Counted from the stretch's first letter, positions 15,397 to 60,400 are shown. The stretch: DNA of 64,000 nt from an uncultured Planctomycetaceae bacterium (GCA_963813715.1 CAWFAK010000007.1:800001-864000), one strand, 5' to 3'. Made by a program: numbers and translations. The notes: a model not told the origin generated them from the letters alone.

Positions 15397-15600
15397 ATCC
15401 CGAAATCTCAACCCTTTTCCGGGAACACCATCTATGGACCGATAAGTGCGGACGCGACAGGCACCCGAAACTCATCCGTTTTGCGGCACGCTGTTCCGTG
15501 CACCAGATTGCCATACGCTTTGGCGGAATCCGGCCTCTCGCTGCGAGAGCGGATCAAACGCCCGGAAATCAGTGGCAGGATTCGAACGTTTTCCGGCGTG
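15397..15600 (+). repeat. res-like module-boundary site, full copy A1
   Basis: aatctcaacccttttccgg ... gaccgataag ... gaaactcatccgtttt ... attgccatacgcttt ... ttcgaacgttttcc; spacings 28/39/71. Confidence 0.85.
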
Positions 15601-15620
15601 GCACTGTCAATGGAGCTTGG

Positions 15621-16501
15621 TTACAGCGAGTTGGCGGTCGAGGTCGCGAGACGGTAGTTTTTCAGAATCTCTGCGGCTGTGAGACAGCGCGGATAGATTG
15701 CTACCTCATCCAGCCCGCCTCTCAAAAAACTCGTGAGGTCGCGACTGCCGAGTCGCAGTGGCGCCGTTCCGGCTCGGGGAGTTACGCGATACGAGCGATA
15801 CAGCGTGGGGGAACTGGGAGGGCCGTTCCTGAGCACTCCGTCGCGATAGATGAAGACGCCCGCGTTGTTGCCCGGCGGTTGATACACGGCCACGACATTG
15901 ATCCACTTGCCAGCAACGATCGGATCCTCGAAATGCGCTCCGGCCCCTTCCGCTCCGTGGGGATTCCAGATGTACGCTGAGATGCGATTGGGGCGGCTCG
16001 AGTCTTTCCTGTAAAACCGAAAGCCCCATTCGAATGCGCCCGCCTCCCCCTTGCCGAGCCAGTGGATATATTCCGAGTTGCGCTGGCAAGGGAAAGTCAG
16101 CGCGTCTGGACGCAACCAGGCCTGCACGGTTAAGCCCATGGTGCCGACGCTGAAATCGCTCTGGGTGGGAATCTCGACGTAGGATCGGCCGTCAAGGCCG
16201 ACGGCCGTGTTGGCGTCACGCCGAATCGCCCCGGGCTCGCCGAGCGCGGCGCTCCATGGTAGACGCCGCTATTCTGAAAGCCGGACGAGTCAAGGGCCGT
16301 GGGTGTGTTTCTCTCGCCCAAGCGCCAATATCCGGCTGGCCTGAGGGAAATCACATGCTGGCTGTAGGCCGAGTTGGCGACGGGCGCTGCGGGCCGCCGA
16401 CCGCCTGCCACAATCGCCCGACGGTTCGTCAGCTCCACGCTGGCTAAGCCGGCTAGAGCGAGCTTCAGCCACTCGCGCCGAGTGAGATCAGATGCGTTCA
16501 T
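15621..16501 (-). CDS. Tat-signal LamG/concanavalin-A-like domain protein, frameshifted near 16240
   Basis: TRREWLK signal; GYWRLGE...ALDSSG; TVQAWLRP, WINVVAVY, GGLDEVAIYPRCLTAAEI. Confidence 0.8.
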
Positions 16502-16684
16502 GAGCTGTTCCTTCCTGAGCCCCGTTTGAATCTGCAGAGCGCCGATTCTTGTCAGGTCCCCGCGGGCCGCGCAAACGAAGGATTGCGATTCGATCACTTT
16601 GGCTCTCGGGCACCGGAGGACTGTGACTTTTGATCGGGAAAACGCACTCGATCGAGCTTCGCGGACGATGAAACAGGTGCATCG

Positions 16685-17467
16685 CTAGCGACGAGCATTG
16701 GTGCTGTTCTCAGGATGTTCAGTTCTAGTTTGCGGGTGGATCGCGCGCTTGTTCGCTGTGTGCGTCTCGGCTCGCCTTTCGACGACGCTGGGCGCGTGAG
16801 CCGGAATGGCATTGCGGACAAGATTGTTCCTCAGAATTGCTTCTCCCCGCGGACTTCGGAAGAACGTGTGGACTCGCTCGAGGAACGGGCGATTAAGCTG
16901 CGCCAGCTGAAGCAACCGCGGTAGCTCGACGACCTGCGCGAAGGTCATGTTTACCTGCAGGATTCGCGGAACCGGCTCAAAGATCGTCAGGCTTCGAGGA
17001 ATCGTCACGAATCCACTGGGGTTGGCGACGAGCACGTACTCGCCTGAACCGGCGACGAAGAGGAGGTCCTGCACGGTGCCAATCGCAACGCCACCGGCCA
17101 GGATTGCCCTCGAGCCGATGATATGGCTGCCGCGAATCAGACTCAGACTCGGGACCCCGGCAACAGGAACCGCTTGCTCTCCGGCCGCCGGGACCGGTTG
17201 GACCGGGGCTGCTGGGAGCGGTTGGGCCGCCGCGGATGGGCCCGGTACGGCGGGAAGCGCTTGGACTGGGGCCACGGGAACCGGTTGGGCGCCGGCTGCC
17301 GGAAGCGGCTGGGCTGGGGCTGCCGGGACTGGAACCGCCGGGGTCGGTTCTGGAACCTGGACAGGTGGATCGGCGCTGGCCGGCGCTTGGCCGAACGAAA
17401 CTTCAGTTGCCGACAGGGCGAGGCAGCCAACGAGAGCAATCACGGCACAGCAACGGATGGTGTTCAT
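16685..17467 (-). CDS. Secreted protein with Pro/Ala-rich repeats and a PRC-barrel-like domain
   Basis: Signal peptide, QPLPAA/QPVPAA repeats, IIGSRAIL..GVAIGTVQDLLF..EYVLV. Confidence 0.6.
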   Translation of the reverse strand: MNTIRCCAVIALVGCLALSATEVSFGQAPASADPPVQVPEPTPAVPVPAAPAQPLPAAGAQPVPVAPVQALPAVPGPSAAAQPLPAAPVQPVPAAGEQAVPVAGVPSLSLIRGSHIIGSRAILAGGVAIGTVQDLLFVAGSGEYVLVANPSGFVTIPRSLTIFEPVPRILQVNMTFAQVVELPRLLQLAQLNRPFLERVHTFFRSPRGEAILRNNLVRNAIPAHAPSVVERRAETHTANKRAIHPQTRTEHPENSTNARR

Positions 17468-17675
17468 TGGGATTCCTTATATTTTGCGTCGCGTCAAGTC
17501 CCTTGGTGGAAGGGCGCGACCATTATCGTTTGGAGGCATTACAGGCAGATTCGAAAGGTTTACGTCTGCGACACAGCGACTTGATTTCGGCCGCAAAGCC
17601 AATGCGCCCCGGGGACCAGACAGCGATCCCCGAGGCGTGACGACCATTGGACCAAAGCCATGGAGCCGGCGTCGG

Positions 17676-18736
17676 TCAGCGGCCAGTCCGGGCTTTTCTG
17701 GCGACGGCCGGAGACGCGGGCGCTGACGGCGAGGGGCTGGCTCCGCCTCGCGTCAGTTTGACGAACAGCTGGTAGCTGCCGGCATTGTCTGTGAAGACCG
17801 AATCCCAGGCCAAGATGTAAGCGACTCCGCCGGTTGAGCAGGTACCCACGTTGGGAACGTTGTGGCCCAGGAAGAAAAACGGAGGGTTGTTACTCATCGA
17901 TTGGTAGACCGACGGCAGAGTTCGCGCCTGCCCAATGGCGCGCGGCATGGTTGCCCATAGAGTGCGGTGGCTCCCATCGCCACTGTAATAGGTGCCTTCA
18001 CCTTGAGGCAGACAAACAACCACACCCCCCTGTTCGCACGAAATACCCCCCGAAGAAGGTTCCACTCCGAAGGGATCGCGGAACATTTCTGCAGCGCCTC
18101 CCTTAAGGAAGCCCTGAGCAAATTGCGCCGCGTCCGTAATCGCCGAATTGGCACTCGTGCTGCCAGTCTCTGCATCGACGACGGCCTCGGTGCCGTCGGC
18201 GACGAGGCCGATGATGCTCGAGAGAGTCGGATCGCCCGAGCTCTTGGAAAAGGAGCAGATCCCGAGGCGCTCATGATCTGGATGGTGTCTCCTGCCTGGA
18301 GTCCTGTAATCGACACGCCAAGGGGATCGGCCACGTTGATAAAGACCGCGACGAGACACGACGGCTGCGAGCGGTCCCAATCGAATTCTTTGCCGAATCC
18401 CGACGGTGCGGTGCCTACGGTGACGACGGTCGAAGTGCTCGATTGATTCGTGGCGCGGCTTACGGCCCGCAGACGTTGAGGCGTTGCCTTGTGCAGCGAT
18501 CCCGCGAGCTTGAGGTAGGAACTGTTGACGCCGCCGGTAGAGCCGGCAGCGTTCTTCGCCGCCCCACTGGTCTGCGTCGCGGGCGTGCCCCCGAACGGAA
18601 TCCGGCCGTTCTTCTTAATTGCGGCCTCGATAGCCGCGATGGCTTGTTTACTATCGGCGCGAACGTGCGTTGTGGCGAGTGTTAGCGCAACCGCCAACCC
18701 GACCGTCGTAAGCCGACCGAAACGAATGCGTGTCAT
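17676..18736 (-). CDS. Secreted hypothetical protein, frameshifted near 18260
   Basis: Signal peptide MTRIRFGRLTTVGLAVALTLATTHVRA; coding continues in ORF 17676-18380 to ...DNAGSYQLFVKLTR. Confidence 0.6.
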
Positions 18737-18819
18737 GGGGATCCGCTCGCTTTCTGGGACGTTGTCCTGTTTGAAAATGGGTTCCGAAATCCCGGCCTCG
18801 ATTGAGCCCTCTTCCACTA

Positions 18820-18845
18820 GTGCGAAATCGCTTATCGATCTGCCG
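18820..18845 (-). promoter_or_regulatory. Putative ECF promoter motif
   Basis: Minus strand T-tract-cggcagatcg-N11-cgcac upstream of the 18736 start; matches 19538, 23352 and 24767. Confidence 0.6.
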
Positions 18846-18962
18846 AAAAAAAATGACAATTCTTCAAACCGCGATGGGAGATTAGGCGCGATGCGACGAA
18901 CATCGATGGGTCGTCGGTAATTCTTTCGAGCCCGATGTGCCGAAGCCGGTATACTCGATTGA

Positions 18963-19511
18963 ATGAGCGACGTGACGCGAATTCTCAACGCGATCGAACA
19001 GGGCGATTCTGAGGCGTCGGAGCAGCTCTTGCCGCTCGTTTATGACGCACTCCGCAGGCTCGCCGCTCATCGGATGGCGCAGGAGCGGCCCGGACAGACA
19101 CTCGACGCGACGGCTCTGGTGCACGAAGCCTATCTGCGGCTTGTCGAAGTTCCCGAGGTCGGGCAGTGGCACGGACGCGGGCACTTCTTTGCGGCCGCGG
19201 CCGAGGCGATGCGGCGGATCCTGGTCGACAATGCCCGCCGCAAGAGTTCCGTGAAACATGGCGGGCAGCGGCAGAGAGTTCCCGTAACGGACATCGCCGA
19301 CGAGAACGATGAGGGCCCGTTATTGGCGTTGGACGCCGCGTTGACCCGGCTTGCGGCTGAGGATCGTGTGGCTGCGAAAATCGTCGAAATGCATCATTTC
19401 GGCGGCTTGAGCCACGAGGTGATTGCCGATTCGCTGGGGCTGACGGTCTACCGGGTTCGCCAGAAATGGACCTACGCCCAGGTTTGGCTGCGGGACGCCA
19501 TCGAACGCTGA
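18963..19511 (+). CDS. ECF sigma factor, planctomycete TIGR02999-like family
   Basis: MSDVTRIL..IEQGD..ASEQLLPLVY..LRRLA...QTL.ATALVHEAYLRL...HFFAAAAEAMRRILVDNARRK. Confidence 0.93.
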   Translation: MSDVTRILNAIEQGDSEASEQLLPLVYDALRRLAAHRMAQERPGQTLDATALVHEAYLRLVEVPEVGQWHGRGHFFAAAAEAMRRILVDNARRKSSVKHGGQRQRVPVTDIADENDEGPLLALDAALTRLAAEDRVAAKIVEMHHFGGLSHEVIADSLGLTVYRVRQKWTYAQVWLRDAIER

Positions 19512-19537
19512 ACTCAGCATCATCGGTGTTTTTTTTT

Positions 19538-19564
19538 CGACAGATCGGTCAGCGGATTTCGCAT
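19538..19564 (+). promoter_or_regulatory. Putative ECF promoter motif
   Basis: T-tract-cgacagatcg-N12-cgcat directly upstream of the kinase ATG at 19593. Confidence 0.6.
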
Positions 19565-19592
19565 GAATAAAGGAAGCGCCTAAGGATCCTTC

Positions 19593-22500
19593 ATGCCGCT
19601 CGACCCCGATCGTGTCCAGGCTATCTTTCTAGCTGCCGTCGAAGCTGAGGATCTGGCGCAGCGCCTCCGAAGTCCTAAATGCCCAATGCGCTGACGACGC
19701 GCAACTGCGCGCCCGTGTCGAGGCGCTCCTGCGGCTGCATGATCAATCGCGCGAACTGCCCGAAGTCGGGACTCTCAACATCGCGCGGGAACGGGAGGCG
19801 CCGGCAATGGAGCCATCAGCCGCGAGTGCCGGCAAAATCATCGCGGGCCGCTACCGGTTGCTGGAAGAAATCGGCGAAGGAGGAATGGGAACCGTTTGGG
19901 TCGCCGAACAGATTCAACCGGTTCGGCGCCGCGTGGCGATCAAGCTCATCAAGTTGGGAATGGACACCCGTCAGGTCCTCTCGCGCTTCGAGCTCGAGCG
20001 CCAAGCGCTGGCCGTCATGGATCATCCGAACATCGCCAAAGTGCTTGACGGCGGAGTGACCGACCAGGGGTGTCCGTTCTTCGCGATGGAGTACGTCAAA
20101 GGCGTGCCCATCACCGAGTATTGCGATCAGGCCAGAGTCAGCGTCGAGGCCCGGCTTCGACTTTTTGTGCAGGTCTGTCAGGCCGTGCAGCACGCGCACC
20201 AAAAGGGAATTATTCACCGCGATTTAAAGCCCTCCAACATTCTGGTCTGCCCCTATGACGGTCGGCCAGTTCCCAAAGTCATCGACTTTGGCCTGGCCAA
20301 GGCGATCAACCAGCCGCTCACGGAAAACACGCTGTATACAGCGCACGGCGTCATGGTTGGGACGCCCTTGTACATGAGTCCCGAGCAGGCGGAGTTCAAT
20401 AACCTCGACGTCGATACTCGCTCCGACATTTATTCGTTGGGCGTCATTCTCTACGAACTCTTGACCGGAACGACACCCCTCGACCGGAAGCGGTTCAAGG
20501 ATGCGGCCTGGCAGGAAATCGTCAGGTTGATCAAGGAGGAGGAACCGAGCAAGCCGAGCACCAAGCTCAGCGGGTCGGGCTCATTGCCTGCCGTTGCCGC
20601 CCAGGCGCAGTTTGGAGCCGGCACAATTGACCCGCTTGGTGCGCGGCGATCTCGACTGGATCGTCATGAAAGCGCTCGACAAAGATCGCTCCCGCCGATA
20701 CGAGACGGCCAACGGCTTGGCGCGAGACCTCGAGCGATATTTGGCCGACGAAGTGGTCGAGGCCCGGCCCCCTTCGGCCGGCTACCGGCTCCTCAAGTTC
20801 GTTCGTCGCAACCGACGAGTCGTGGCTGCCGTGGGGCTGATTGCGCTGACCCTCGTCGCCGGCATCATCGGCACGACGTGGGGAATGTTGAGCGCGGTAC
20901 AAGCTCAAAAGGCTGAAGCTATCCGCGCGGAGGGGGAACGACTCGCCAAGCTTGACGCGGACGAACAGAAATCGAAAGCGATCGCAGCCAACGGACGGGC
21001 GCAAAAGTCGCGCGATCGGGCTGAGCGGCGATTCGAGCTCGCTGTCGAAGCGATCGAGAATTTCCGCTCCGTCGTCGACCGGAATCTCGACGTCAAAAAC
21101 CGACCGGAAAACGAAGCGTTGCGCAAGGCGCTGTTGCAGGCCCCTCTCGGCTACTACCAGAAGTTGCGGGACGATTTGAATGCCGGCGGGGACGCCAGCC
21201 CTGAGACGCGGACGCAACTTGGCGACGCGTATCTCAAGGTGGGCTCGCTCAACTACGACATCGGCTCGCAGGCCGACGCGCTCAAGGAGCTCGACGAGGC
21301 GGCGAACCTTTATGAGCGATTATTTCGGGAGGCACCGGCCGAACAAAAGCCCAAATACCGTGCCCGGCTCGCCCGGACGCTCGCCGAGCGCGGGGAACTC
21401 CAATCCTCCAGCTCGAATATGAACGCGCAGGCATTCGAATCGCTCCATCGCAGCCGGGAGCTGCAGGAAGCCTGCCTCCGCGACAACCCAGCAGACGTGA
21501 GTGCGCAGAACACTGGCCCGGGTGCTCTACAGTCTGGCCGGGCTCGAAGGCCGCAAAGGAAAGCTCGACTGGCGCTCAACACACTGAAAGCGAGCCAAGC
21601 GTCACTGGAAGAAGGTTGCCGACAAGCGCCGGACGATGTGGGGTTACAGACCTTGCTCGCCGGAGTGCATTTAAGGAGAAGCGAGCTTCTTTCCGAGCAG
21701 CGAGGCCGACTGGCGGACGCCCAGGATGCTGCGCAAACGGCGCTGCAATTCATCGAGGGACTCGTCCGCTCGCATCCCGATTCGGTGGAATGCAAACAGG
21801 AGTTGGCTCGGGCCTATTCGCGCCTGGGAATCATCAACCAGCGCCAAGGCGCCCAGGATCGGGCGCTCGAGCTTTTCAGCAAACAGGCCAGCACGTTCGA
21901 AGAGATGGTCCGCCTGCAGCCGACGCGCAACCATCTCAAGCTCGATCATGCTCTTGCGCTGGGCGGTCTGGCATCTGCCCAGTACCACCTCGGGCGGAAT
22001 GAAGAGGGACTGGCCAATCTGCAACGAGGGCGCGACCTCGCGGCGGCGCTCGTTCGCGAAAATCCGACGAATCTGACCTTTAAACGAGCGCTCAGCACTT
22101 TGGACAGCCGCAGGGTTTTTCCGCTTCATTCGATGGGACGCGTGGCGGAGGCGTTGGCGGCCGCGGAGTCCAGCACGACCTTTCTGGAGGAGGTCAACCG
22201 GGCCGAACCTGACGATTTGGGAGCGCTCAAGGATTTAGCGGGGGCTCACTATAACTGCGCACTTCTCAGCAGAGAATTGGGGCGCATCGACGCAGCGGAG
22301 GCGGAGTACAAGAAGGCTCTCGTCCTCCGGGAGCGTCTCGCGCAAAAGCACCCCGACGATCCTTCAATCATCGACACCATTGCGACAACGTTGGGGAACA
22401 TCGGCGTCTGTCAGGAAGACCGCGAGCATTTTGCCGAGGCGAAGGTGTCGTATCAGGGCGCCGTGGACTCCTTACAGAAGCTGTGCGCCGCCCATCCCGA

Positions 22501-23231
22501 CAGTGCTGCCGCTCAAAACCACTTTGCGCGGGCCCGACAGAATCTCGGCAACGTGCTGGCCAGGCTGGGTAAACCGGAGGAGGCGCTTGTCCCCCTCCTG
22601 CGCGGCTCAAGAAGCGAGCGAACGCCTCGCCCGGGAGCATCCGGGCGTTGTGGAATACCAGGACGACGTGGCCCGGGGCTTCCAATACCTCGCCGCGGCC
22701 CTGGCTCGATTGGGCCACGTCCGTGATGCCGAGAAATACTACTCCGAGGCAATTCGCGTCCGCGAGCAAACTCTTCAATCACATCCGACTGATTCCCAAA
22801 ACCTCGCCAGGCTCTTCACACTGTTCAACGAACGAGGAGACTTCGAGCTTGCGAGCCATCAGGCTGCGGCCGCCGTCGCCTCTTACCGAAACGCGGTCAA
22901 ACTGATCGAAGGCCAACCGCACGCGACAAGCGAGCAGCTCTACGACCTTGCGGCCGTCCATGCCAAGCTCGCAAGGAACGGCAGCAAAAGCGGCTTAGGG
23001 TTGAAAGCCGACGAGACGCGCGTCGCCGCCGACCAGGCGATGGCAGTGCTCGACAAGGCAGTCGGAGCCGGTTTCCGCAACCTCGACCAGATCAGCAAGG
23101 ACCCGAATTTCGACAGCTTGCGCCCGCGTGACGATTTCAAGAAGCTGCTCGAACGCTTAGGTCCCCGCTCAAAGCCCGCATCCGGTTCTGGAGGCTCGGG
23201 CGACGCAAACGGCCACGTGAGCGGAAGATAG
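19593..23231 (+). CDS. Ser/Thr protein kinase with TM segment and TPR repeats, several frameshifts
   Basis: [65 protein letters not shown] repeats. Confidence 0.9.
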
Positions 23232-23351
23232 TCCGGCGAGAATGTCGGCGCCGCGCCCAGTCATTGCGGCCGTAGGCACGCAATCGGAGGGCCGCCCCAA
23301 CGCCTCGGTGGGACAATCTTGACACTCGATCACGAATTTTTCATTTCTTTT

Positions 23352-23377
23352 CGACAGATCGACGGCGGATTTCGCAT
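23352..23377 (+). promoter_or_regulatory. Putative ECF promoter motif
   Basis: tttt-cgacagatcg-N11-cgcat upstream of the 23451 GTG. Confidence 0.6.
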
Positions 23378-23450
23378 GACAGGTGGACGGGTCAATGCAA
23401 CCCGAAGATCCCTCGAACCGGAACCACCAACTCCAAGTAGGAGGCCAGTC

Positions 23451-24620: not shown

Positions 24621-24766
24621 GAATCTCGACCGTGACGAGCCTTGCTCGCCCGACCAAAGTCATCACGGCTGAGAGGTCCAACCGGGGCCTCTCGGCCGTT
24701 CGTTTTTCTCCATTCGTGGCAATCTCGCAACCGCAACCGCCGAGCCGGAAATCTATGATTTTTTTT

Positions 24767-24793
24767 CAACAGGTTGTGCCGCCGGCGTCGCAT
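24767..24793 (+). promoter_or_regulatory. Putative ECF promoter motif (divergent copy)
   Basis: T-tract-caacaggttg-N12-cgcat upstream of the S53 peptidase ATG at 24889. Confidence 0.45.
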
Positions 24794-24888
24794 GGCAGAG
24801 GGTGACTCTGGCAGACTTTGTGCAGATCGAAGCCCGGCTGCCCGGTCCGATCGTCGCGGGTCATGTCCTCCGCAGCAGGAGATCGGCA

Positions 24889-28795: not shown

Positions 28796-28878
28796 CGCAG
28801 GGGCTCCAGGAAAGTGTTTGGGTCGATCGCAGTCACAGCTACAAGGGATGGCTGCAATGTGCCTCCCGGCAGTCCCCT

Positions 28879-49439: not shown

Positions 49440-49556
49440 AGATCAGGTCGTTTCACGGCCTGATCCTGAATCGGGGTACTCCGGCCGGAGCAGTCATGGG
49501 GTGAGTTATGGCGTGTCGCGTGCGATCGCCGATTAATGGCTCGCGTAGGTCTGTTT

Positions 49557-50958: not shown

Positions 50959-51036
50959 GGACTGAATGACGACCCTGACGGCCGACCTTTCGTGATTGGA
51001 TCCCGACTCGAGACGATGCCGAGGCACGGACTCTTA

Positions 51037-51053
51037 AGCAAAGGACAGGCCGA
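51037..51053 (-). promoter_or_regulatory. sigma54 -24/-12 promoter for the second RND operon
   Basis: Minus strand TCGG-CCTGTCCTTT-GCT (GG-N10-GC); adjacent NtrC-type regulator; candidate UAS at 51163-51198. Confidence 0.6.
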
Positions 51054-51236
51054 AATGAATGGATGCCGAGAGCATGTCCGAAAGTCACAGTCAGCGAATG
51101 ACTTGTGCGATCGAAGGAGAAAATGGCTTGAACCGGCGGTCTCGAATCCAAGCGGAAGGTTCGGGAGAAAATCCCAAATGGTTGGGATCTATTCCCAAAA
51201 GTCGGGCGAGACCGCGAAGGTGGGAGAGCGTCGCTT

Positions 51237-52683
51237 TCAGTCCGGCATCCCGGTGAAGTCGCTGGCTCCCTTGGCGGGGGTGATCCCCAGTTCGCGAAGC
51301 TTATTGCGAAGCGTCTTCCGATCGATGCCGAGCCGTTCGCAGGCGTTGCCCAGATGTCCGTGAGCGTGCCGAAGGACTCGAGTAATCAGCTCCCGTTCGA
51401 CCGCTGTGAGGACCTTGTGGTACATCTCCTTCTCGCCGCCGCTCAGCATGGATTCGATGGTTCCCACGACGTCGAGATCAGAGGGGCTCTGGCCGACGAT
51501 TGGAACCTTGGCTGAATCCTCTCCGGCCGCAACAAGCCCCGGCGGAAGAAACTCCGCGAGGATCGTCCGTCCGGTCGTCCTCAGGGTCGCTTCCTTGATC
51601 GCACCGCGCAGCTCGCGAACGTTGCCCGGCCACGGATAACGTCGGAAGATTTCCAGCACCTCGGGCGCAAAGCCACGAACGTCTCGCCCCGACTCGCGGG
51701 CAAACTGAGCCAAGAAATGGTGAGCCAGCTCCTCGATGTCTTCGGTCCGATCGCGGAGCGGAGGGAGCCGGATCGTGATCTCCTTCAGACGGTAGTAGAG
51801 ATCGCTTCGGAACCGGCCATCGACGATAAGTTGTTCCAAGTTATAGTTGGTCGCTGCCAGCACCCGGACTTTGCGTGCTGATCGATTTGCCACCGCCGAC
51901 TCGCTCGAACGTTTGATCCTGCAGAAACCGGAGCATTTTCGCCTGGACGGCCGCCGGCATGTCTCCGATCTCGTCCAGAAAGAGGGTGCCGCCGTCCGCC
52001 TGCTCGAATCGGCCGATCCGCCGCTGGTCGGCGCCGGTGAACGCGCCGGGCTCGTGACCGAAAAGTTCGCTCTCGACGAGCCCTTCGGGAATCGCCGCGC
52101 AATTGATCGCCAGAAAGGGCTTGTCCGCTCGCTGACTGTGCTCGTAAATGGCGCGTGCGACCAGCTCTTTCCCGGTGCCGCTCTCACCCAGGATCAGCAC
52201 CGTCACGTCCAACGGAGCGACCCGGCCGATCTGTTTGGAGATCTCCCGCACGAGAGGAGACCGGCCGACAATTCGTTCCTTGCGCGCTTCATCCGGAGGG
52301 ACGGCGGGTTCGATCCTGAGACGGGCCGCTTCGAATGCTCGCTCCAGCAGTCCGCTCATTTGCTCGAGGTCGAAGGGCTTGCCGATATAGTCGAACGCCC
52401 CCCGCTTCATTGCCTCGATCGCCGTCTCGGTCGTTCCGTGCGCGGTCAAGAAGATGACTGGACGCTTGGGATCGGCCGCCCGAATCCGATCAAATAGATC
52501 GAGGCCGGATCCATCCAGAAGCTGGAGATCCAGCACGATCACGTCCGGCTGGTCCTCCTCGACCCGCTGCCAAGCCTCGGCGACCGTTCCGGCCGAGGCC
52601 ACCTCGACATCAACCGTCGCAAAGACCCAGTGGAACGACTGGCAGATCAGCGGTTCGTCATCAATGACCAGCAGTTTCGGCAT
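51237..52683 (-). CDS. sigma54-dependent response regulator (NtrC family), frameshifted near 51880
   Basis: REC domain [44 protein letters not shown], Fis-type HTH. Confidence 0.93.
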
Positions 52684-54157
52684 GCAACTCTTCTGCGGTT
52701 GGCAGGGTGAGCGTAAAACAGGCGCCGCCACCGGAGCGGTCGGCAGCAGTCAGTTCGCCCCCGTGCTCCCGTGCAACCCGCCGGGCAACAGTCAGACCGA
52801 GCCCGGTCCCGGTCGGCTTGGTGGTTGCGAAAGGGGTAAACAGCCTACCCACGAGTGTTCGATCAATCCCCGGACCGCTGTCGCTCACCTCGACCCGAAT
52901 CATACCGCCCTTGCCTGTTCCGGTGGAGACAGTGACTTCGCCTCCGGGCGGGGTGGCATCGATCGCATTGAACAGCAGGTTGGTGAGGACCGACAAAAAC
53001 TGATCACAGTCGATGGCGGCGCGGAGCGGTTCGTGCGAGGAATTCAGCCGCACGGAGATTGATTTCGTCTCCGCCCGGCTTTGTGCGACGTCGATGGCCG
53101 CCTCGACGAACGTCCGAATGTCGTGTGTGCGGAGGTCGCGGGGCCCGGCCTGGGCAAAATCCATCAGCCCCTGCACAGTCCTTTCGATCCGAGCGACTTC
53201 CTGGAGCAGCAGGTGCAGACGGTCCACCGTGAGTGGGGTCGGGTTCTGTGGCCGTACCGCAGCTTGAAGCAGGAACTTCACGCCGGTAAGAGGGTTTCTG
53301 ACCTCGTGCGCGACTTCGGCTGCGAGTTCCCCGACGGCCGCGAGCTGCTCCGCCCGAAGCAACTCCCGCTCCTGCTCCTGAAGCCGCTGGCAGACTGCGC
53401 TGACCCGGGCGACTACTCGGTCCAGTTGCTTGTCAAGATCTCCGAAGTGGGCCGGCGCCTGGACGGTCATTTCACCGACCTCCTGATCCAGGTGTGCTTG
53501 AACTGCTTGGACTCGGATCGACAAGCGAGCGACGCGTTGCGTCAGCGCCCGGGCGGTCGCGTACCCGCTCAAGAGACCCGCGAGGACGCCTGCGAACCCA
53601 AGGGAGAACAGCACCCGACCGGCCCAGGCGGTCTGGGTCTCGCTTCGTTCCAGGCTGTCCCTCATTCGCTTGCTTTGGCGATCCGCCAATTCGACGCACG
53701 GCGCCAGCAGGTCGCGCATGTGGTGCGCGTCCGACCACCGGGCCACATCGCTGTTGCTAATCTTTGCCGCGGCGGGAAGTCGGTCGATCGCGAGATTTTC
53801 CCGGTACCGCGCGTAGTCTTGCACGATTCTTTGAGACAGTTGGGCATCCTCCCGAGTCGTGGCGGTCTGCTGAATCGCCGCGAGCGCCGCGTCGACATGC
53901 GCCAGATCAGCCCGCACGGTCTCGCGACGAGCGTCCGTCGGATCCGCAAAGAGCACCAGCGAATGGACCCGCAGGTGCCGGAGCTGGAGCTGAAGATCGA
54001 CGGCGGCCTCCCTCGCGGCTGCGTCCTGGCTGACAGCCCGCGCCAACTCCGCCTGAAGTCGATTGATATACCAAGAGCCGGCCAGGCAAGCGACCGCGAC
54101 CAGAATCCCAAGCGCAACGAGCGGCCCCGAGTAAATGTTGAACAGAAACTGGCGCAT
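52661..54157 (-). CDS. Sensor histidine kinase
   Basis: Two TM segments; [37 protein letters not shown]. Confidence 0.93.
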
Positions 54158-54415
54158 TGGGCCAATCCTCTTGCTGCAAGCTCGACTTCGGATTCGGAGT
54201 CCCCATGCATTCTTGTCTTTTATTACTTCGACTGCCAATCCCGTGGCTCACGGAGTCTCGCTTCTTGCCGGCACACAAAATGGCCTTGCAGTGCCATAGC
54301 GCTCGAGCACCTAGGCTCGACGAGGCCCTGTCGGAGGTCGCGTTTGCCGTTACGTGATTCAGAGTAATCGTCGGTACTATTTGCGCGGGGGTTCCTCCAA
54401 GAATCGCAGCACTGA

Positions 54416-54497
54416 AGTGTCCATAATCTCAACCGTTTTCTGCCATTCCCGTTAATCGACCCAGTTTCTGAAACTCGTTGCCCAGGATCTGGGAACG
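54416..54497 (+). repeat. res-like site, left-arm copy B2 upstream of the resolvase
   Basis: gtgtccataatctcaaccgttttctgccattcccgttaatcgacc closely matches the left arm of A2; followed by cagtttctgaaa and a hairpin. Confidence 0.8.
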
Positions 54498-54559
54498 CTG
54501 TGAAGACAGTCGGCGTCCGATATCGAGACGCACATCAAGTCTGACAACAGAGCAATTCC

Positions 54560-55150
54560 GTGATCGCCGCTTCCGACGGCGGTCGCCTTGTCGGATACGC
54601 TCGGGTCGGCACGGAAGGCCAAGAGCTGGCACTCCAACTCGATGCCCTGCGAAATCACGGAGTCGCGAACGAGCTGATTTTCACCGACAATGCGTCGGGC
54701 GCAAAACGTGACCGACCAGGGCTAGATGCCTGCTTCCGCGAGCTTCGCGCCGGCGACATCTTGCTGGTCTGGCGTCTCGACCGACTGGGAAGATCGGTCC
54801 GCCACCTGGTCACGCTGATCGATCAGCTTCAGGACCTTGGCGTTGGATTCCGGTCCGTCTGCGATGGCGCCATCGACACCACGACGCCCTCGGGCGAGTT
54901 AATCTTTCACATCTTCTCGTCACTCGCGCAATTCGAACGCCGACTCATCCAGGAGCGGACCAAAGCCGGGCTCGCCGCCGCTCGTGCGCGCGGTCATACG
55001 GGTGGTCGGCCGCCACTGACTCCAAACGACGCCAAAGTTGCGCTCGCGAATAAACTCTTCCCCGACAAGTCAGTGGATCCGGATGACATCTGCGCGACGT
55101 TGAAGATTTCGAAGACCACCCTGTACCGTTATGTGGAGATCGCGACAGGA
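54560..55150 (+). CDS. Small serine recombinase (Hin/Tn3-resolvase family); catalytic Ser appears as Gly; ORF reads through to 55438
   Basis: GYARVGT, DRPGL, LLVWRLDRLGRS, AIDTTTPSG, LAQFER..IQERT.AGLAAARARG..GGRPP, ISKTTLYRY. Confidence 0.93.
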
Positions 55151-55159
55151 CGCGTGATT

Positions 55160-55345
55160 CGGTCGCGGAATCACTCTCGTTTACGCCGACACACCGGGGC
55201 CGCCGGGCCAAAAACTCATACGATTCTTCGGACGCTTTTAGGACGCCAGATTGCCATACGTCTTGGCGGAATCGGGCCGCAGGCTGTGAGAGTGGGCGAA
55301 ACGCCCGGAAAACGGCGGCGTAAATCGAACCATTTTCGGAACAGC
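55160..55345 (+). repeat. res-like site, right-arm-only copy C downstream of the resolvase
   Basis: aaaactcatacgatt, attgccatacgtcttggcggaatc, aaatcgaaccatttt; spacings 38/71. Confidence 0.8.
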
Positions 55346-55467
55346 CATTTAGCTCCATTCACGGGAACATTTGTGGACAAATGTCGTGTCTTCAACCATC
55401 TTCACATGGGGATCCCGGGTGCTGCATTCGCCGCCTGATTCGCCTCCACTTCGCCGAGAGACTTCCA

Positions 55468-57623
55468 ATGCTTAGAACGATTCACGAGTGGCACCGATGG
55501 AGGTGCATGGCCGTTGCGGCTTTGCTTCTGCTCTTCGCATTCGCGGGTGGTCGAACGCATGACATTGCGCGGAAGAAAAGCCGTTAAAAGCAGACCGCCG
55601 AGGCGTGATCACGGGCAAGATCGTTGATCGGCTCAATTCGTCGGTCGTCGGGGCGCGGGTAACCCTCTATCGCTGGCAATCGCCAAGCGGGCGTTGGGGA
55701 CGTTGGAAAGTCGCGAGCGACCCGGTCCTTACTGACAAAGCCGGGACCTATCGATTTGAAGGTCTGGCTGACGACTACTTCATGTTGTCGGTCGAATGCA
55801 CCGGGTTCGCGCACGGCTTCTCTGACACGAGAATCAAAGATGCACAAGCACGGCAGGTGAATCTTACATTGAATCCCCCGGCGTCGCCGGTGATTCGAAT
55901 TGAAGATCAAGCCGGCAAACCAATCGTTGGCGCACGGGTCCGCGAATTCCGATTGCGCGGTGTCAATGGCCAACTCCGACTCCCACAGCTTTCCCTGGCC
56001 ACACTGGGAATCGCAATTCTGCCGAGCGACAAGAGCGGTCGCCTTCAACTGCCGCCGCTCCCTTACGGCGACGTGGTTTGCGATGTCATCATCGATCATT
56101 CCGACTTTGCGCCGGTGCGGATCAATGAATTGCCGGCAGCCTCCGGCGCCGAGGCCAGGGTGACGATGCGACCGGGTGTCGCCGTTACGTTGCGAGTGCC
56201 GGTCGATCGTCCGGCTGAGCGAATCACGGGCGCTGTCGTCGATCTGCGGCACGAGCCCTTTCACGATCCATCGACCTTCGGGCAATACGAGGCGTATTTC
56301 GATCCCCAAGGCATAGCAAGGCTGACCGTCGAGCCAGGTAATTATTCGTTCCTTCTGCTGCAGCACGAGGATTTCTTTCTGACACCGGTTTACTCCGCAA
56401 ACTTTGATCAGAAAATGCTTCGCATCGAGCCGGGACGAAACCAGGACCTGCACTTCGATATCCACCGCAAAGTTTCTGTTCGCGGCCGGATCCTCGAATC
56501 CGACACCGGAAAGCCGCCGCGCAACATGGCAGTGATGGGGGAGTTGAAGCACCGTGTGCCAAGGGGATGGGATGATCCGCCGCCCGACGAATGGAGTCTT
56601 GCCGGATGGGGCGAATCCGATGAGCAGGGAGAATACACGATCGACCTTGCCGCTGGGAGTGCGCGAGTCTCACTTCAAGAACGTGAATTTCTGCCGGAAC
56701 AGGAATTCTATGAGCTGAACGTGACCGCCAATGGGTCGACCGTCCTTCCAGATATCAAGGTCCGCCGGCTGCCGAAGATCGTTGGAATTGTCCAGAATCC
56801 GGATGGCAGCGCGGCCGCTGGCGCCGTCGTTCGTCTCCGTGGAAAGTACATGACGGCACTACAGCCCGTGTTGACGAATGCCGCCGGACGATTCGAGCTT
56901 CGGCCGGCATTCATTCCGCTCGACGAGGAAACACACAAGCGAGCCTTCGTGCAGAGCCTGGCTGCCTTCGATCCGTTCCGTCCCCTGGCGGCTCGTGCCA
57001 AAGTGCGGCTCGACAAACCGGAAGCGGTCGTCCTCAAGCTGGAGCCCCACGATCCCGACTGGCTCCTGTCGGCGTTTCGCACAGGATCGAGGGACGGCGA
57101 GCGTGGCGGGGTTTCGCCCAACGAAGCCGGCAGGTTTGCGGCGATTTCCTTGAGGGATCGCCCCGCTCCTGAACTTGAGGCGGCGCTCTGGTTGAATACC
57201 GGAGGCCAGCCCCTCAGGCTGGCCGATCTGCGGGGGAAGTTTGTATTGCTCGATTTCTGGTTCACAGGTTGCGGCCCCTGCCACGCCGACTTTCCATCGG
57301 TCAAGCTGGTTCACGAGTTATACAAGGACAAAGGCGTCGTGGTCATCGGCGTCCATAACAACTCCGGTAGCCCCGAGGCGGTCCGGGAACACGTCGCCAA
57401 GATCAAACTGCCGTTTCCGGTCGCCGTGGACTATCCCGATGGCCGCACGATCGCCCGCTTTGAGTCGCACGGAATTCCCGATGGTTACCCCGACTATGTA
57501 CTGATTTCCCCGGAAGGCAAAGTTCTCCTCGACGACCGGACCATTCCACACGCGACTCTGCGGGCCTACAAGATGGAGATCATCCGCAAGTTTCTGCTCG
57601 AATCGCAGACTGCAGCGAAATAA
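55468..57623 (+). CDS. Exported protein with carboxypeptidase-regulatory-like repeats and C-terminal TlpA/redoxin domain; signal peptide out of frame
   Basis: TDKAGTYRFEGL-type repeats; LADLRGKFVLLDFWFTGCGPC. Confidence 0.8.
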
Positions 57624-57668
57624 ATGCCGCCCGTCGGTCGCGCGGGCGGATCGCGTTGCCGTCGCCGT

Positions 57669-57751
57669 CGTCCGGTAATGTCAACCGTTTTCTCGAACAC
57701 CCGGAAAATGACCAATTTCGGGAATGGCGCGTCACCGCGTTGCGGTGACGC
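57669..57751 (+). repeat. res-like site, left-arm copy B3
   Basis: gtccggtaatgtcaaccgttttctc, gacc 28 bp later, aatttcggga, hairpin gcgtcaccgc-gtt-gcggtgacgc. Confidence 0.75.
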
Positions 57752-58110
57752 CGGTGCCGGGCACGAACCAATGCGCAGAGATCGCGAGGATGGCCTTCGG
57801 CCAGGGCGTCTCCTGGCCGAGACGGGTCCAGCATTCGGTGTACGTGCTCGTCAGTACCGCGTCCATCGGGTTGCCGTGGCCGATGAAGTACGAAGGTACA
57901 ACGAGTCGGTCGGCAAAGAAAAGGTCGCCACGGCTCTACTCCTCTGTCATGTGCCGTCAGATCGGTCGTCGTGCTCAGCGGTGCCCGCTGACGTTCCTTC
58001 AGTTCCTGCTCCGCGGCCGGGGTAAAGTTGTGTCATCATGTTCCTCCGATTTGCTTGCGGTTCTTGGGTCCATAATCTCAGTCCCTTCGAACGATCAAAG
58101 GAGTACACCC

Positions 58111-59379
58111 GTGAACGCGGCCAAGACGAGTTCTGCTGACCTAGTACTTTCAAACCTCGACCATTTGCTCCCGGACCTAGAATCGCTTTACACCGATGTC
58201 CACGCGCACCCCGAGTTGTCGATGCAGGAAACTCGGACGGCCGGCCTGGCAGCGGACCGGCTCCGCAGCGCCGGCTACGAGGTGACGACGGGGGTCGGGA
58301 AGACCGGCGTCGTCGGGCTGCTCCGCAACGGCGATGGGCCGACCGTCATGCTGCGCGCTGACATGGACGCCCTGCCGGTCGAGGAGGCGACCGGCCTGCC
58401 CTACGCCAGTAAAGTCAAAGCCACGGACCGTGAAGGGAAGACGGTGCCGGTGATGCACGCATGCGGCCACGACATGCATGTCGCCTGGCTCACGGGCGCG
58501 ACCACGCTGCTGGCGCAGGCCCGCGGGGCGTGGCGGGGAACGCTGATGGCTGTCTTTCAGCCGGCGGAGGAGACGGCGGAAGGTGCGCAGGCCATGATCA
58601 ATGATGGGCTGTTCGACCGCTTCCCCCAACCCAGTGTGGTCCTCGGCCAGCACGTCATGGTTGGGGCGGCTGGTGTCATCGCCGGGCGCGCCGGCGTCAT
58701 CACCTCGGCCGCGGACAGCTTGCAGATCCGGCTGTTCGGGCGCGGCGGACACGGCTCGATGCCCCAGGCCTGCGTCGATCCCGTCGTCATGGCGGCGGCG
58801 ACAGTGTTGCGGCTGCAAACCATCGTCTCGCGCGAACTCGCCGCCACCGAAGCCGCCGTGGTCACCGTTGGCTCGCTGCAGGCCGGCACAAAGGAGAACG
58901 TCATCCCAGACGAGGCCGTCATCAAGCTGAACGTACGCACCTTCGACGGCGGCGTACGCAAGCGCGTCCTCGCCGCGGTCAGGCGGATCGTCAACGCGGA
59001 GGCGGCGGCCTCGGGGGCGCCCAAGCCCCCGGAAATCACTCCGCTTGACAGTTACGCCCTGGTGGAGAACGACTCTGCGGCGAGCAATCGCGTCGCCGAC
59101 GCGTTCCGACAATACTTCCCATCCGAGCGGGTCCGGGAGACCGGGCCGTCGCCCGCGAGCGAGGACTTCGGGTGTTTTGGCGCCGAGTGGCACGTCCCGT
59201 CGGTGTTCTGGTTCGTCGGTGGCACGGACCCTGATGTCTATGCGAAAGCCAAAGAGGCGGGCCGGCTCAACGACCTGCCGACCAACCACAACCCGCATTT
59301 CGCACCGGTGATTCATCCGACCCTGGAAACGGGAGTGGAAACGCTGGTTGTCGCTGCGCGGGCCTGGCTGTCGGCGTAG
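58111..59379 (+). CDS. M20D amidohydrolase (hippurate hydrolase-like)
   Basis: HAHPELSMQE, LRADMDALP, MHACGHDMH, FQPAEE, GRGGHGSMP, SEDFG; RBS aaggag. Confidence 0.92.
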   Translation: MNAAKTSSADLVLSNLDHLLPDLESLYTDVHAHPELSMQETRTAGLAADRLRSAGYEVTTGVGKTGVVGLLRNGDGPTVMLRADMDALPVEEATGLPYASKVKATDREGKTVPVMHACGHDMHVAWLTGATTLLAQARGAWRGTLMAVFQPAEETAEGAQAMINDGLFDRFPQPSVVLGQHVMVGAAGVIAGRAGVITSAADSLQIRLFGRGGHGSMPQACVDPVVMAAATVLRLQTIVSRELAATEAAVVTVGSLQAGTKENVIPDEAVIKLNVRTFDGGVRKRVLAAVRRIVNAEAAASGAPKPPEITPLDSYALVENDSAASNRVADAFRQYFPSERVRETGPSPASEDFGCFGAEWHVPSVFWFVGGTDPDVYAKAKEAGRLNDLPTNHNPHFAPVIHPTLETGVETLVVAARAWLSA

Positions 59380-59389
59380 GACACTCACG

Positions 59390-60050
59390 ATGCAGACGCT
59401 CCTGGCACTCGACCTTGCCGGCACCTTCGTCTTCGCGATAAGCGGGGCGATGGCGGGCGTGAAGCACCGGCTCGACCTCTTCGGCGTGCTAGTTCTGTCG
59501 TTTGTGGCAGCCAATACCGGCGGGATCGCCCGCGATGTTCTAATCGGGGCTGTGCCGCCACCAGCGCTCAGCAACTGGCGCTATGTGGCTGTGTCGCTCC
59601 TGGCCGGCGTCGTCACCTTTTTCTGTTATGGCACCGTTGATCGGTTGCACAGCCCCGTACTCATGTTCGACGCCGCCGGGCTGGCACTCTTTGCCGTCGC
59701 CGGCGCGCAGAAGGCCGTCGCGTTAGGGTTGGGCCCGGTCCCGGCGGCACTGCTCGGCATGCTGACCGGGATCGGCGGCGTGCATGGCGCGCGACGTGAT
59801 GCTGGCGGAGATCCCCACGGTGCTGCGCGCCGACTTGTACGCCGTCGCCGCCCTGGCCGGCGCGGCGGTGGTGGTGATCGCCGACCTGCTCCAACTCCCG
59901 TTCACCGCGGCGATGGTCGTGGGCGCGGCGCTCTGCTTCGGGATCCGCTTTCTCGCGATCCGCCGCGGCTGGCGGCTCCCCGTCGCCCGCCCGCCCGAGA
60001 GGACGGACGGCTCGAACGAACGACAGGACAGCACCGCGAAGGGGCCTTGA
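59390..60050 (+). CDS. TRIC / UPF0126 membrane protein, one frameshift
   Basis: DLAGTFVFAISGA, GGIARDVL, DAAGLALF, ARDVML.EIP.VL. Confidence 0.88.
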
Positions 60051-60199
60051 AGGTGAGGTTCGTGAGTACGCGATTGGTTCGGCCAAATGGAGACTGGGTC
60101 GGTAGAGCGGTGGGTCGCGAGTTCGGCAATCAGCATCAAGAGTGTGCGATCCGGTCATTCTCTGCGCAACAAGCGAATTTCGTCGTCACTCCTGCCGCT

Positions 60200-60400
60200 T
60201 TCCCGTAATCTCAAACCTTTTCCGGGACACGAAAAAAAAAGGACCGATAAGTGCCGCCTCGACCAGAAACCCATACCTTTTTCGGCAGGTGATTCTGCGT
60301 ACCGGATTGCCATACGTTTTGTGGGAATCGAGCCTCGAATGGCGAGGGGCGGGCGAAGGCCCGGAATTCTGGGACGTAAATCGAACGTTTTTCCGGAACG
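60200..60400 (+). repeat. res-like module-boundary site, full copy A5
   Basis: aatctcaaaccttttccggg, gaccgataagtgccgcc, gaaacccataccttttt, attgccatacgtttt, aaatcgaacgttttt; spacings 30/39/71. Confidence 0.85.

Follow-up and report, generated by a model that had tools for sequence, protein, structure and literature searches.

Co-oriented arrays of five-dyad sites at the junctions of exchanged gene cassettes in a planctomycete: candidate recombination sites of a Gin-like small serine recombinase

The repeats described here, found in a 64,000-nucleotide stretch of DNA from an uncultured soil Planctomycetaceae bacterium (the window), are probably the recombination sites of a small serine recombinase resembling the Gin invertase, and would bound exchangeable cassettes of genes. 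An earlier note on this DNA had suggested a candidate system of co-oriented res- or hix-like sites, cargo modules and a small serine recombinase, and this is supported by the positions of the cassette junctions, by the dyad in which they fall, and by a Gin-like gene with a site linked to it. The four subsites listed as the recombination site are indeed dyads, but the crossover appears to lie in none of them, falling instead in a fifth dyad, X. Sites, cassettes and associated genes are given in Table 1.

Table 1. Sites, cassettes, recombinase genes and host island, in window coordinates.
Feature	Position	Strand	Remarks
Genomic island (77.7 kb), left part	10384..64000		contig C7 810,384-888,047; extends past window end
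Large serine recombinase of island	12494..14124	+	in two frames (frameshift or assembly indel)
Full site S1-X-S2-S3-S4	15391..15599	+	X centre AC 15438-15439; profile E 5.9e-58, arm E 1.7e-8
Cassette 1	15440..32130		Laminin_G_3, ECF sigma + Ser/Thr kinase + TPR, repeat protein, PKD, CAAX protease, transglutaminase-like (Pfam)
Short site S1 + X, type B right half	32084..32145	+	X centre 32131-32132; arm E 1.3e-8
Cassette 2	32133..34745		PglD-like hexapeptide acetyltransferase (-), VIT1 (+) (Pfam)
Degenerate S1 + X	34704..34760	+	X centre 34746-34747; 1-kb cassette homology starts here, 7 copies
Cassette 3, multi-copy, 1 kb	34748..35764	-	His_Phos_1 (histidine-phosphatase) gene, broken here, + 118-aa ORF
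Full site	35718..35922	+	X centre 35765-35766; profile E 1.3e-54
Cassette 4	35767..36931		211-aa ORF (36070-36702 +), without Pfam family
Full site, divergent lineage	36886..37097	+	X centre 36932-36933; profile E 3.7e-44
Cassette 5	36934..45045		214-aa ORF, OMF-MFP-RND-PadR (-), 190-aa ORF (Pfam)
Site with S1-X joined directly to S3-S4	44998..45142	+	X centre 45046-45047
Cassette 6	45048..54458	-	DUF47, RND, HlyD, sigma-54 response regulator, histidine kinase (Pfam)
Short site S1 + X	54417..54475	+	X centre 54459-54460; arm E 1.8e-8
Gin-like small serine recombinase	54560..55183	+	Pfam Resolvase E 7e-46
Recombinase-linked site	55160..55342	+	degenerate S1' overlaps gene end, then S2-S3-S4; profile E 6.3e-43
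Cassette 8	55343..57710	+	CarboxypepD_reg + redoxin (TlpA-like) protein (Pfam)
Short site S1 + X	57664..57725	+	X centre 57711-57712; arm E 1.3e-8
Cassette 9	57713..60242	+	M20 peptidase + TRIC/Gly_transporter (Pfam)
Full site	60194..60396	+	X centre 60243-60244; profile E 1.6e-51

All ten elements that the note had placed on the + strand were recovered in the window by repeat search, profiles and cassette homology. The repeat search returned two families: D1, with five 130-nt copies (15463, 35789, 45007, 55206, and 60262; each 62-71% identical to the reference), and D5, with five 43-nt copies (15403, 32096, 35730, 54424, and 57676). A profile of the full element, built from six window copies, matched the sites beginning at 15391, 35718, 36886, 44998, 55160, and 60194 at E 6e-58 to 6e-34 and, weakly, 54418-54463 (E 0.006) and 32084-32137 (E 0.07), and an arm profile matched eight of the ten places at E 1e-8 to 3e-7. 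The copy at 55160, listed as partial, is almost complete, since S2-S4 are all there and only its S1 is degenerate; the copy at 45004, listed as full or near-full, is present but lacks S2; and the copy at 34704 is too degenerate for either profile to report, although cassette homology begins at its ACC. Rfam gave no matches at gathering score in the window.

Each full element consists of dyad-symmetric sites that follow one another in the order S1-X-S2-S3-S4. The conserved spacings reported earlier were reproduced: S2 and S3 are 38-39 bp apart in five of five copies, the distance from S3 to S4 is identical in six of six (72 bp by our anchors, 71 by those of the note), and S1 lies 29-32 bp from (G/A)ACC by our anchors (27-30 bp from GACC in the note). 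This GACC is the core of X, the fifth site, whose dyad spans 22-24 bp and is centred on AC, and ACC stands at a fixed 22-24 nt downstream of S1 and likewise of S2. Excluding type A, in which the right half of X leads into S2-S4, 24 sites score 5.75 matches over 12 mirrored positions, compared with 3.16 +/- 0.31 for shuffles (maximum 4.17 in 2000) and 3.17 for a non-complemented control; type-A right halves are weak dyads, with 4.8 of 12 against 2.91 +/- 0.45, a value that the best shuffle reached too. The window's best dyad, at site 57664..57725, reads CCGGAAAATG AC CAATTTCGGG. Across 25 elements, the half-sites are spaced as AA[AT]C-N6-G[TA]TT 18 times and in the N4 form five times.

The family extends well beyond the window. 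This genome holds 43 sites, clustered and locally co-oriented; the full profile alone gave 25 matches at E<1e-5 on 6 contigs; elsewhere in the genome both global orientations occur, but clusters are co-oriented, and 27 of 30 neighbouring pairs within 30 kb lie on the same strand, although such pairs are not independent events. The random scatter in both orientations that the note had named as the mark of MITE or REP repeats is thus not what we see, and these pairs, together with E values down to 6e-58, place the family beyond chance. It was found in all 11 congeners and in one further genus (g83; 6 element copies in the genome), and at 14 array loci from six congeners, chosen with their strands already known, all 53 full-profile matches agree in strand within their own locus.

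The sites separate functionally unrelated gene modules, as had been proposed: the window array comprises about ten multi-gene cassettes of 1-17 kb with genes on both strands (Pfam), and blocks shared with related genomes are bounded at X. The note had asked whether module breakpoints coincide with the sites, and blocks common to related genomes start and stop exactly at the AC of X, so that cassettes are reshuffled between genomes with the junction at this dinucleotide. For example, the 1-kb cassette 3 occurs in 8 copies in 4 genomes (the copy on contig C6 of this genome is 99.3% identical; His_Phos_1 E 1.9e-6 on a congener's intact copy of the gene). Its left end, compared over 7 copies (21 pairs), shows 60% identity across the 45 nt before the AC and 87% across the 45 nt after it; its right end (6 copies, 15 pairs) shows 90% before and 65% after. 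Identical cassettes stand behind different arms in several genomes, and a 2-kb cassette shared within this genome (C5 4287-6314 and C7 875298-877328, 97.5%) stops at the AC and continues into different right sides. For cassettes other than these two, congener matches run from X or S2 up to X: one to cassette 6 spans 45046 to 54461, X to X, and window 55213-57721 is 87% identical to a congener array, from S2 to X. Window 58048-60058, within cassette 9, is 91% identical to a congener array. A congener carries the gene block of cassette 5 (37256-44787; 92%) at a different locus, the counterpart of which on C2 of this genome holds a site fragment; in one congener no recognisable sites were found at the bounds of this RND block. 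The site at 44998..45142 lacks the roughly 62 bp, S2 included, between the ACC of X and the one that follows, and its undeleted form precedes the same cassette in a congener (locus L031) and on C6, and the divergent lineage of site 36886..37097 recurs at C17 418834 and in g83. Soil metagenome contigs break at the X junction as well: in three of four samples contigs begin at 34744, position 35765 is where 14 loose-end contigs bearing different arms stop (such ends before 35765 occur in three samples), and the fit of one contig to the window ends at 32126. Joints at X that go back or skip have only 22-37 letters on their shorter side and so may derive from other family members.

To judge from the sequence, the only enzyme tied to the sites is the Gin-like small serine recombinase, whose nearest solved relative is Gin invertase (4m6f/3uj3, E 5e-44 with an orthologue as query, versus 1e-31 for gamma-delta/Tn3 resolvase). 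Gene and site are linked. The X centre at 54459-54460 is 100 bp upstream of the recombinase start, homology common to eight recombinase loci begins at the short site 54417..54475 and covers S1/X to S4 only, and site 55160..55342 is inherited along with the gene in six of the eight orthologous loci. Among 11 loci in other genera with upstream DNA (59-81% amino acid identity to the recombinase), four have a dyad (8-10 of 12) with core CG-GT-CG 108-111 bp upstream, and a fifth has one at 218 bp; the outer arms vary between genera while the symmetry is kept, and the core is GT, not AC, relative to the gene. These orthologues may be plain invertases or resolvases. In g83, the recombinase (65% amino acid identity) is again followed by S2-S4. 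The window's own copy is probably dead: in the assembled sequence codon 17 (54608-54610) is GGC, for glycine, where all eight orthologues have serine, and the stop codon is lost, the TGA of the orthologues being TTA here (55181-55183), which lets the reading frame run on to 55438. With its local recombinase probably dead, the window array is likely frozen.

A 77.7-kb genomic island carries the array as cargo. At the start of the island is a large serine recombinase (Resolvase 12494-12826, E 3.8e-16; Recombinase PF07508 12829-14124, E 1.2e-16), homologues of which, at 74% and 69% nucleotide identity, lie beside arrays in a congener. The sites could be true recombination sites used by this or some other enzyme, with the Gin-like gene a passenger cassette. 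We think this unlikely, though it has several points in its favour: here, as at two loci of a congener, a large serine recombinase gene is found 1.3-5 kb from the array, the local Gin-like gene has glycine for serine, and in one congener, where BLAST matched the element 26 times, there is no Gin-like orthologue at E 1e-10, so that sites persist without the enzyme and its gene could be just another cassette. However, genera with 59-68% amino acid identity have retained an X-type dyad 100-111 bp upstream of the Gin-like gene, the geometry suits invertase-type sites, and the Gin-like protein has a GGRPP arm. Large serine integrases, moreover, would leave sites resembling attP, attB, attL, and attR, whereas all sites here are equivalent.

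It is decidedly unlikely that the Gin-like gene and its adjacent site form an ordinary module for multimer resolution or inversion, the other copies being decayed duplicates that act as rearrangement hot spots. Such an origin would fit the orthologues in other genera, which show only one site near the gene, but 43 sites in the genome, in co-oriented clusters with a conserved five-site anatomy and spacing, and independent cassettes bounded at the same dinucleotide in several genomes argue against it. A precedent for such modules in genomic islands is SGI1, which likewise combines a small serine recombinase with a res site, yet there a single res site serves multimer resolution, not an array bounding cassettes (PMC12217951).

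We consider it very improbable that the 200-bp element is a MITE- or REP-like mobile repeat and the mosaic a product of homologous recombination between dispersed copies. The family is genome-wide, and chimeric copies exist (one, at C6 8480, has the 5' portion of 35724 fused to the 3' portion of 45004), but the copies are clustered and co-oriented, an alignment of 25 copies showed no terminal inverted repeats, target-site duplications or inverted ends at the element ends, and breakpoints fall at one dinucleotide instead of being spread along the repeat. Furthermore, the syntenic locus of a close congener lacks the whole island rather than single elements: DNA matching window 6976-10383 (92%) and C7 888048-895941 (91%) lies about 440 bp apart there, and no element was found in the 16-kb locus. 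Least credible is a reading of the sites as termini of single-strand (HUH/Y1, IS200/IS605-like) cassettes, with cleavage after the ACC about 22 nt past a hairpin. The fixed ACC 22-24 nt after S1 and S2, the directly oriented palindromic subsites and the lack of terminal inverted repeats or target-site duplications would suit it, but the junction is itself a dyad centre and none of the 8 Y1_Tnp matches in this genome is near an array.

For recombination by a Gin-like enzyme, we propose the following. A full site is a row of five dimer-type dyads, of which X, with the form CCG-W-AAACG / AC / CG-W-CGG, would undergo strand exchange at its asymmetric central AC. The junction dinucleotide is the centre of a dyad with invertase-type geometry. 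S1-S4 would share the outer half-sites of X, with AAAC and GTTT 6 bp apart instead of 4, and are most likely non-cleaved accessory sites, as in res. The right half of an X opens each cassette, standing alone in type B and continuing into S2-S4 in type A; at the far end come the cassette's own S1 and the left half of an X. The Gin-like recombinase, as the presumed catalyst, would cut two directly repeated X sites and excise the intervening DNA as a circle with one hybrid site; in the reverse reaction, the circle could insert at any X, building arrays with all sites in one direction. Invertase-family enzymes classically invert rather than excise, which counts against the excision reading.

Two features of small serine recombinase systems are seen here: the cognate site adjoins the gene (X centre 100 bp upstream), and the site is a dyad around a 2-bp centre, with junctions at that centre. 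Gin and Hin with their gix and hix sites offer both the nearest solved relative of the recombinase and a site just upstream of the gene, and their crossover site is likewise a short dyad with a 2-bp asymmetric centre and an A/T tract in each half. They differ in that here the sites are direct repeats in arrays bounding multi-gene blocks, full sites have four further dyads, and inversion is not the evident outcome; in contrast to Gin and Hin, we know of no enhancer or Fis dependence for the array system. The res sites of Tn3 and gamma-delta hold three dimer sites in 114 bp (PMC2602789). Like them, the array sites would combine one crossover site with accessory sites that reuse its half-sites at different spacings, excision would follow from direct repeats, and the recombinase gene is adjacent; here, however, about 200 bp hold five sites, the crossover site being the second, there are many sites per island, and the enzyme is nearer to the invertases. 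We rejected a Tn3-family transposon: among the 138 ORFs between 12.8 and 64 kb, Pfam matched no transposase family, TnpA included, and the 25-copy alignment showed no transposon inverted repeats. Tn3-family transposons do exchange gene modules at res site I, with homology breaking at the crossover dinucleotide (PMC7157771), although the exchanges described there are single events between transposons, whereas here a standing chromosomal array of about ten cassettes has a site at every junction. Membership among the integrons (IntI, attI, attC) was also rejected, since there is no IntI-type recombinase beside the array (no tyrosine recombinase, PF00589, in the window; the nearest in this genome is at C7 884786, 24 kb beyond the last window site) and there are no short single-orientation attC cassettes. 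The sites are rows of short dyads without attC-type structure, the enzyme class is serine, and the cassettes are 1-17 kb, multi-gene, and of both gene orientations rather than short and single-ORF. Yet both systems have co-oriented arrays of sites, the same cassette behind different neighbours, and a boundary inside the site, which leaves most of a cassette's own site at the 3' end of that cassette; gene blocks have been swapped at the centre of a site much as integron cassettes are, though probably by another class of enzyme.

Gene blocks have been reshuffled between copies of a five-dyad element, S1-X-S2-S3-S4, with the junction at the central AC of its second dyad, X, and these sites are linked to the gene of a small, Gin-like serine recombinase. 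Related sequence is present, on the + strand throughout, at all ten places where the earlier note had located such elements. A repeat search of the window returned a 130-nt family (15463, 35789, 45007, 55206, and 60262) and a 43-nt family (15403, 32096, 35730, 54424, and 57676). A full-element profile, built from six window copies, places the elements as listed in the table, and an arm profile recovers eight of the ten places (E 1e-8 to 3e-7). Both profiles miss the 34704 copy because of its degeneracy; we regard it as real because cassette homology begins at its ACC. The earlier sorting into full and partial copies needs two corrections: the copy at 55160, called partial, is nearly full, and the copy at 45004, called full or near-full, lacks subsite 2. 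The constant spacing described there holds, S2 to S3 being 38-39 bp in five of five copies and S3 to S4 identical in six of six, and the alignment of 25 genomic copies and 34 arms assigns the GACC used as a marker after subsite 1 to a fifth site, X.

Element copies recovered with the full-element profile (E 6e-58 to 6e-34) and other features of the window
Feature	Coordinates	Strand	Remarks
Element copy	15391-15599	+	
Element copy	35718-35922	+	
Element copy	36886-37097	+	
Element copy	44998-45142	+	
Element copy	55160-55342	+	
Element copy	60194-60396	+	
Best X of the window	57711		CCGGAAAATG AC CAATTTCGGG
Large serine recombinase	12494-14124		Start of island; read in two frames

The site anatomy comes from that same alignment. 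X has a central AC between mirrored halves, in the form CCG-W-AAACG, AC, CG-W-CGG. Agreement between the halves reaches 5.75 of 12 mirrored positions over the 24 sites that lack the canonical right side, against 3.16 +/- 0.31 in shuffles (maximum 4.17 in 2000) and 3.17 in a non-complemented control. Dyads are weaker with the ten canonical right halves of type A, in which S2-S4 come after CGATAAGTGCC...: 4.8 against 2.91 +/- 0.45, the best shuffle likewise reaching 4.8. S1-S4 have the same outer half-sites as X, with 6 bp rather than 4 from AAAC to GTTT; across 25 elements, the N6 form matches 18 times and the N4 form five times. From the alignment and the dyads, therefore, a full element consists of S1, X about 27 bp on, S2 after about 37 bp, S3 after 38-39 bp, and S4 after 71-72 bp, and a "partial" copy is S1 plus an X with a bare right half (type B). 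In the 45004 copy, the ACC of X is joined directly to the sequence after the next ACC, about 22 nt past S2, with a loss of about 62 bp. An Rfam scan of the window gave no matches and thus no known RNA family. We rejected a reading of the subsites as RNA or single-strand hairpins: the junction is the dyad centre, and no Y1/HUH gene lies near the arrays, where none of the eight Y1_Tnp (RAYT-like) matches of the genome is found.

The earlier note proposed checking whether module content varies at the sites between strains; related genomes show steps of identity at AC and cassettes standing behind different neighbors. The 1-kb cassette at 34748-35764 (a cassette being a gene block between two X) occurs in eight copies in four genomes. 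Its upstream flanks are unrelated, each with a different S1 arm, and homology starts at AC/CGATAAATGG; it closes with its own conserved S1 arm, past whose AC the right sides vary. Across AC, identity rises from 60% to 87% at the left end (7 copies, 21 pairs) and falls from 90% to 65% at the right end (6 copies, 15 pairs). Two copies in the source genome are 99.3% identical, and the closest pairs are copies of one genome, a pattern of likeness that points to recent copying of the block within lineages. An intact copy in a congener (a genome of the same genus) encodes a His_Phos_1 protein; the broken fragments of the cassette contain no Pfam families. A 2-kb block common to contigs C5 and C7 of the source genome (97.5%), the latter carrying the window at 800001-864000, ends at AC and continues into type A in one copy and type B in the other. 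For the DUF47-RND-two-component block, a congener match runs from 45046 to 54461, that is, from X to X, and for the TlpA-like block, a match in another congener runs from S2 (55213) to X (57721).

The OMF-MFP-RND-PadR block is less regular: in one congener, just one of its sides carries a full site; for another, the counterpart locus of the source genome holds only a reversed site fragment. We considered this RND block as a clean pair of empty and occupied junctions, the congener having the block between DNA that is adjacent on contig C2 of the source genome, and rejected it: the "empty" site consists of the reversed site fragment and 344 bp, and the congener junctions hold a degenerate subsite only. 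As a sequence comparison, it is suggestive of an empty and an occupied state. Beside the reversed fragment, at about 69,100-69,050 of C2, lies a short tandem repeat of three copies with units like TTTCCGTTCGACAGTG. An occupied/empty pair proposed for the 1-kb cassette, congener locus L024 and C7 at 979 kb, was also set aside, the upstream neighbors being unrelated; the downstream module is common to both (98.3%).

Contigs matching 33500-38500 were found in 20 runs from 16 studies, all of them soil metagenomes, and four runs were aligned to 30000-49999 at a likeness of at least 90%. Contigs of the 1-kb cassette start at 34744 in three of the four samples, and 14 contigs that fit from 35765 on carry other arms ahead of that position. 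A 6,222-nt contig follows the window over 32126-37065 and diverges from it afterwards; its strain is 99.4% identical. Joints from 45040 to 32126 and from 45047 to 36933, which go back, and from 34745 to 35765, which skips 1019, were candidates for circle or deletion junctions; we do not count them as such because their shorter side has only 22-37 letters and the arms are a repeat family. Joints from 35816, 35857, and 35864 to 45046, 45107, and 45108 are other family members. One-base indels relative to the window at 32456, 33613, 34194, 35718, and 40245, each common to two or three independent soil samples, indicate assembly errors; because of such errors, the split VIT1, OMF, RND, HlyD, and sigma-54 regulator ORFs are probably artefacts rather than pseudogenes.

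The Gin-like gene at 54560 is the sole close relative of its kind in the source genome. The nearest solved relative of its product is Gin invertase (E 5e-44; gamma-delta/Tn3 resolvase, 1e-31), and a GGRPP arm is present. Orthologues of 85-95% identity lie inside the arrays of six congeners, and further congeners have fragments; no orthologue turned up in two, one of them with 26 BLAST matches to the element. All eight full-length orthologue copies examined carry YARVST, the window copy having YARVGT (GGC at 54608-54610) and TTA in place of the orthologues' TGA stop; both differences are substitutions in the assembly sequence. The homology of the eight recombinase loci begins at S1/X, ahead of the gene, and runs to S4 behind it. 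In a family sample of 151 genomes, 18 have a recombinase match at E<=1e-25, representing 17 of 92 genera. Other genera yielded twelve orthologue loci (59-81% amino acid identity), 11 of them with upstream DNA: four of these 11 have a dyad (8-10 of 12; core CG-GT-CG) at 108-111 bp before the start, and a fifth has one at 218 bp, the distance from X to the start in the window being 100 bp. The outer arms of these dyads vary by genus while symmetry is kept. In one further genus (g83; 65% amino acid identity), S2-S4 likewise come after the gene, and 1.5 kb beyond them there is a full element; this genome has six element copies. A related-locus search with the recombinase stayed within the window's genus except for two distant proteins (30-35% identity). 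The linkage of gene and site kept across these genera is our main reason for assigning X to the Gin-like enzyme.

The 7.49-Mb assembly (18 contigs) has 43 distinct sites, clustered on seven contigs. Neighbors up to 30 kb apart share a strand in 27 of 30 pairs; the pairs do not count as independent events. BLAST places the element in 11 of 11 congeners, in none of seven other genera sampled from the family, and, weakly, in one of 12 more distant genomes. At 14 array loci in six congeners, picked with their strands already known from the BLAST survey, all 53 full-profile hits share the strand of the rest of their locus, and a single weak arm hit (E 0.17) is on the other strand; in a one-contig congener, considered for a possible replichore-strand explanation of the co-orientation, site clusters switch strand in alternation along the chromosome. 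At congener locus L037 (5148-7399), M20-TRIC genes on the + strand are directly followed by a full element on the - strand, part of a - oriented array, an arrangement that an inversion between sites of opposite orientation may have produced.

The window's array is inside a genomic island. In a close congener, the counterparts of window 6976-10383 and of C7 888048-895941 lie about 440 bp apart with no element at that locus, and because its flanks adjoin in this way, the island measures 77.7 kb. It has 12 co-oriented sites between 815 and 877 kb of C7. Just within its left end, upstream of the large serine recombinase, is a 28-nt inverted repeat (11948-12032; 96% complementary, 29-nt loop). Three contigs start inside or beside site arrays (C5 1-10 kb, C6 1-10 kb, and C15 8-22 kb); array sizes are lower bounds because repeated cassettes probably break assembly.

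The genome has repeats and paralogues of other kinds. At 492-588 lies a palindromic REP-like unit whose 29-nt arms are 100% complementary; BLAST matches it at more than 70 places genome-wide (79-91% identity), frequently in inverted pairs. The gene group at 18963-22723 combines ECF sigma (PF07638), Ser/Thr kinase, and TPR; its kinase is matched by 14 or more paralogues in the genome (67-78% at the nucleotide level), several adjoining other site clusters (C5 722, C6 13695, and C7 977k/992k/997k). A 433-aa ORF without a Pfam family carries, at 23736-24218, densely packed tandem repeats that keep the reading frame (15-21 nt, GGxACx units), and a paralogue of the DUF47-RND-HlyD block (45477-50920), 78.6% identical, stands apart from the arrays at C5 1397482-1402901.

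A tentative reading, to which we give slightly less than even weight, is that the array is a counterpart of the integron that works with a serine recombinase: a gene-capture platform on soil-planctomycete islands, in which the Gin-like enzyme would cut out multi-gene cassettes as circles, each cassette closing with its own S1 and the left half of an X, and put them back at any X, the S1-S4 accessory array setting direction. In the mechanism that we favor for the sites, recombinase dimers would bind all five dyads and cut nowhere but at X, the dyad with the 2-bp center, S1-S4 acting as res-like accessory sites. Two X in direct repeat would release a circular cassette with a hybrid X, insertion of circles at any X would build co-oriented arrays, and the asymmetric AC would set polarity. 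With the crossover dinucleotide and the half-sites defined, and with natural orthologues that carry Ser, among them a 207-aa protein at locus L014, the idea is directly testable on plasmids. The findings suggest that a small serine recombinase with res/hix-like sites can organize integron-like arrays in uncultured soil planctomycetes, with large, multi-gene cassettes here of efflux pumps, sigma-factor/kinase pairs, and transporters. S1-X could serve as a marker to delimit cassettes in metagenomes, and builders of recombinase tools may take an interest in a serine-recombinase system from nature that has five sites and an asymmetric core.

Integrons are the textbook case of gene cassettes being stacked and shuffled, and they need a tyrosine recombinase acting on folded attC. 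The array is not an integron: there is no IntI and no attC here, and, unlike those of integrons, the cassettes are multi-gene and lie on both strands. Its parts are known singly: enzymes of the invertase/resolvase type, dyads as crossover sites, sites in an accessory role, and, between Tn3-family transposons, the exchange of modules at res site I (PMC7157771). The literature searched, CC-licensed PMC articles and bioRxiv, holds no account of the element or of a serine-recombinase cassette array. Relative to that literature, what appears to be new is the arrangement: on an island, some ten large cassettes form a standing array, with a five-dyad site at each junction and the crossover site second in the row.
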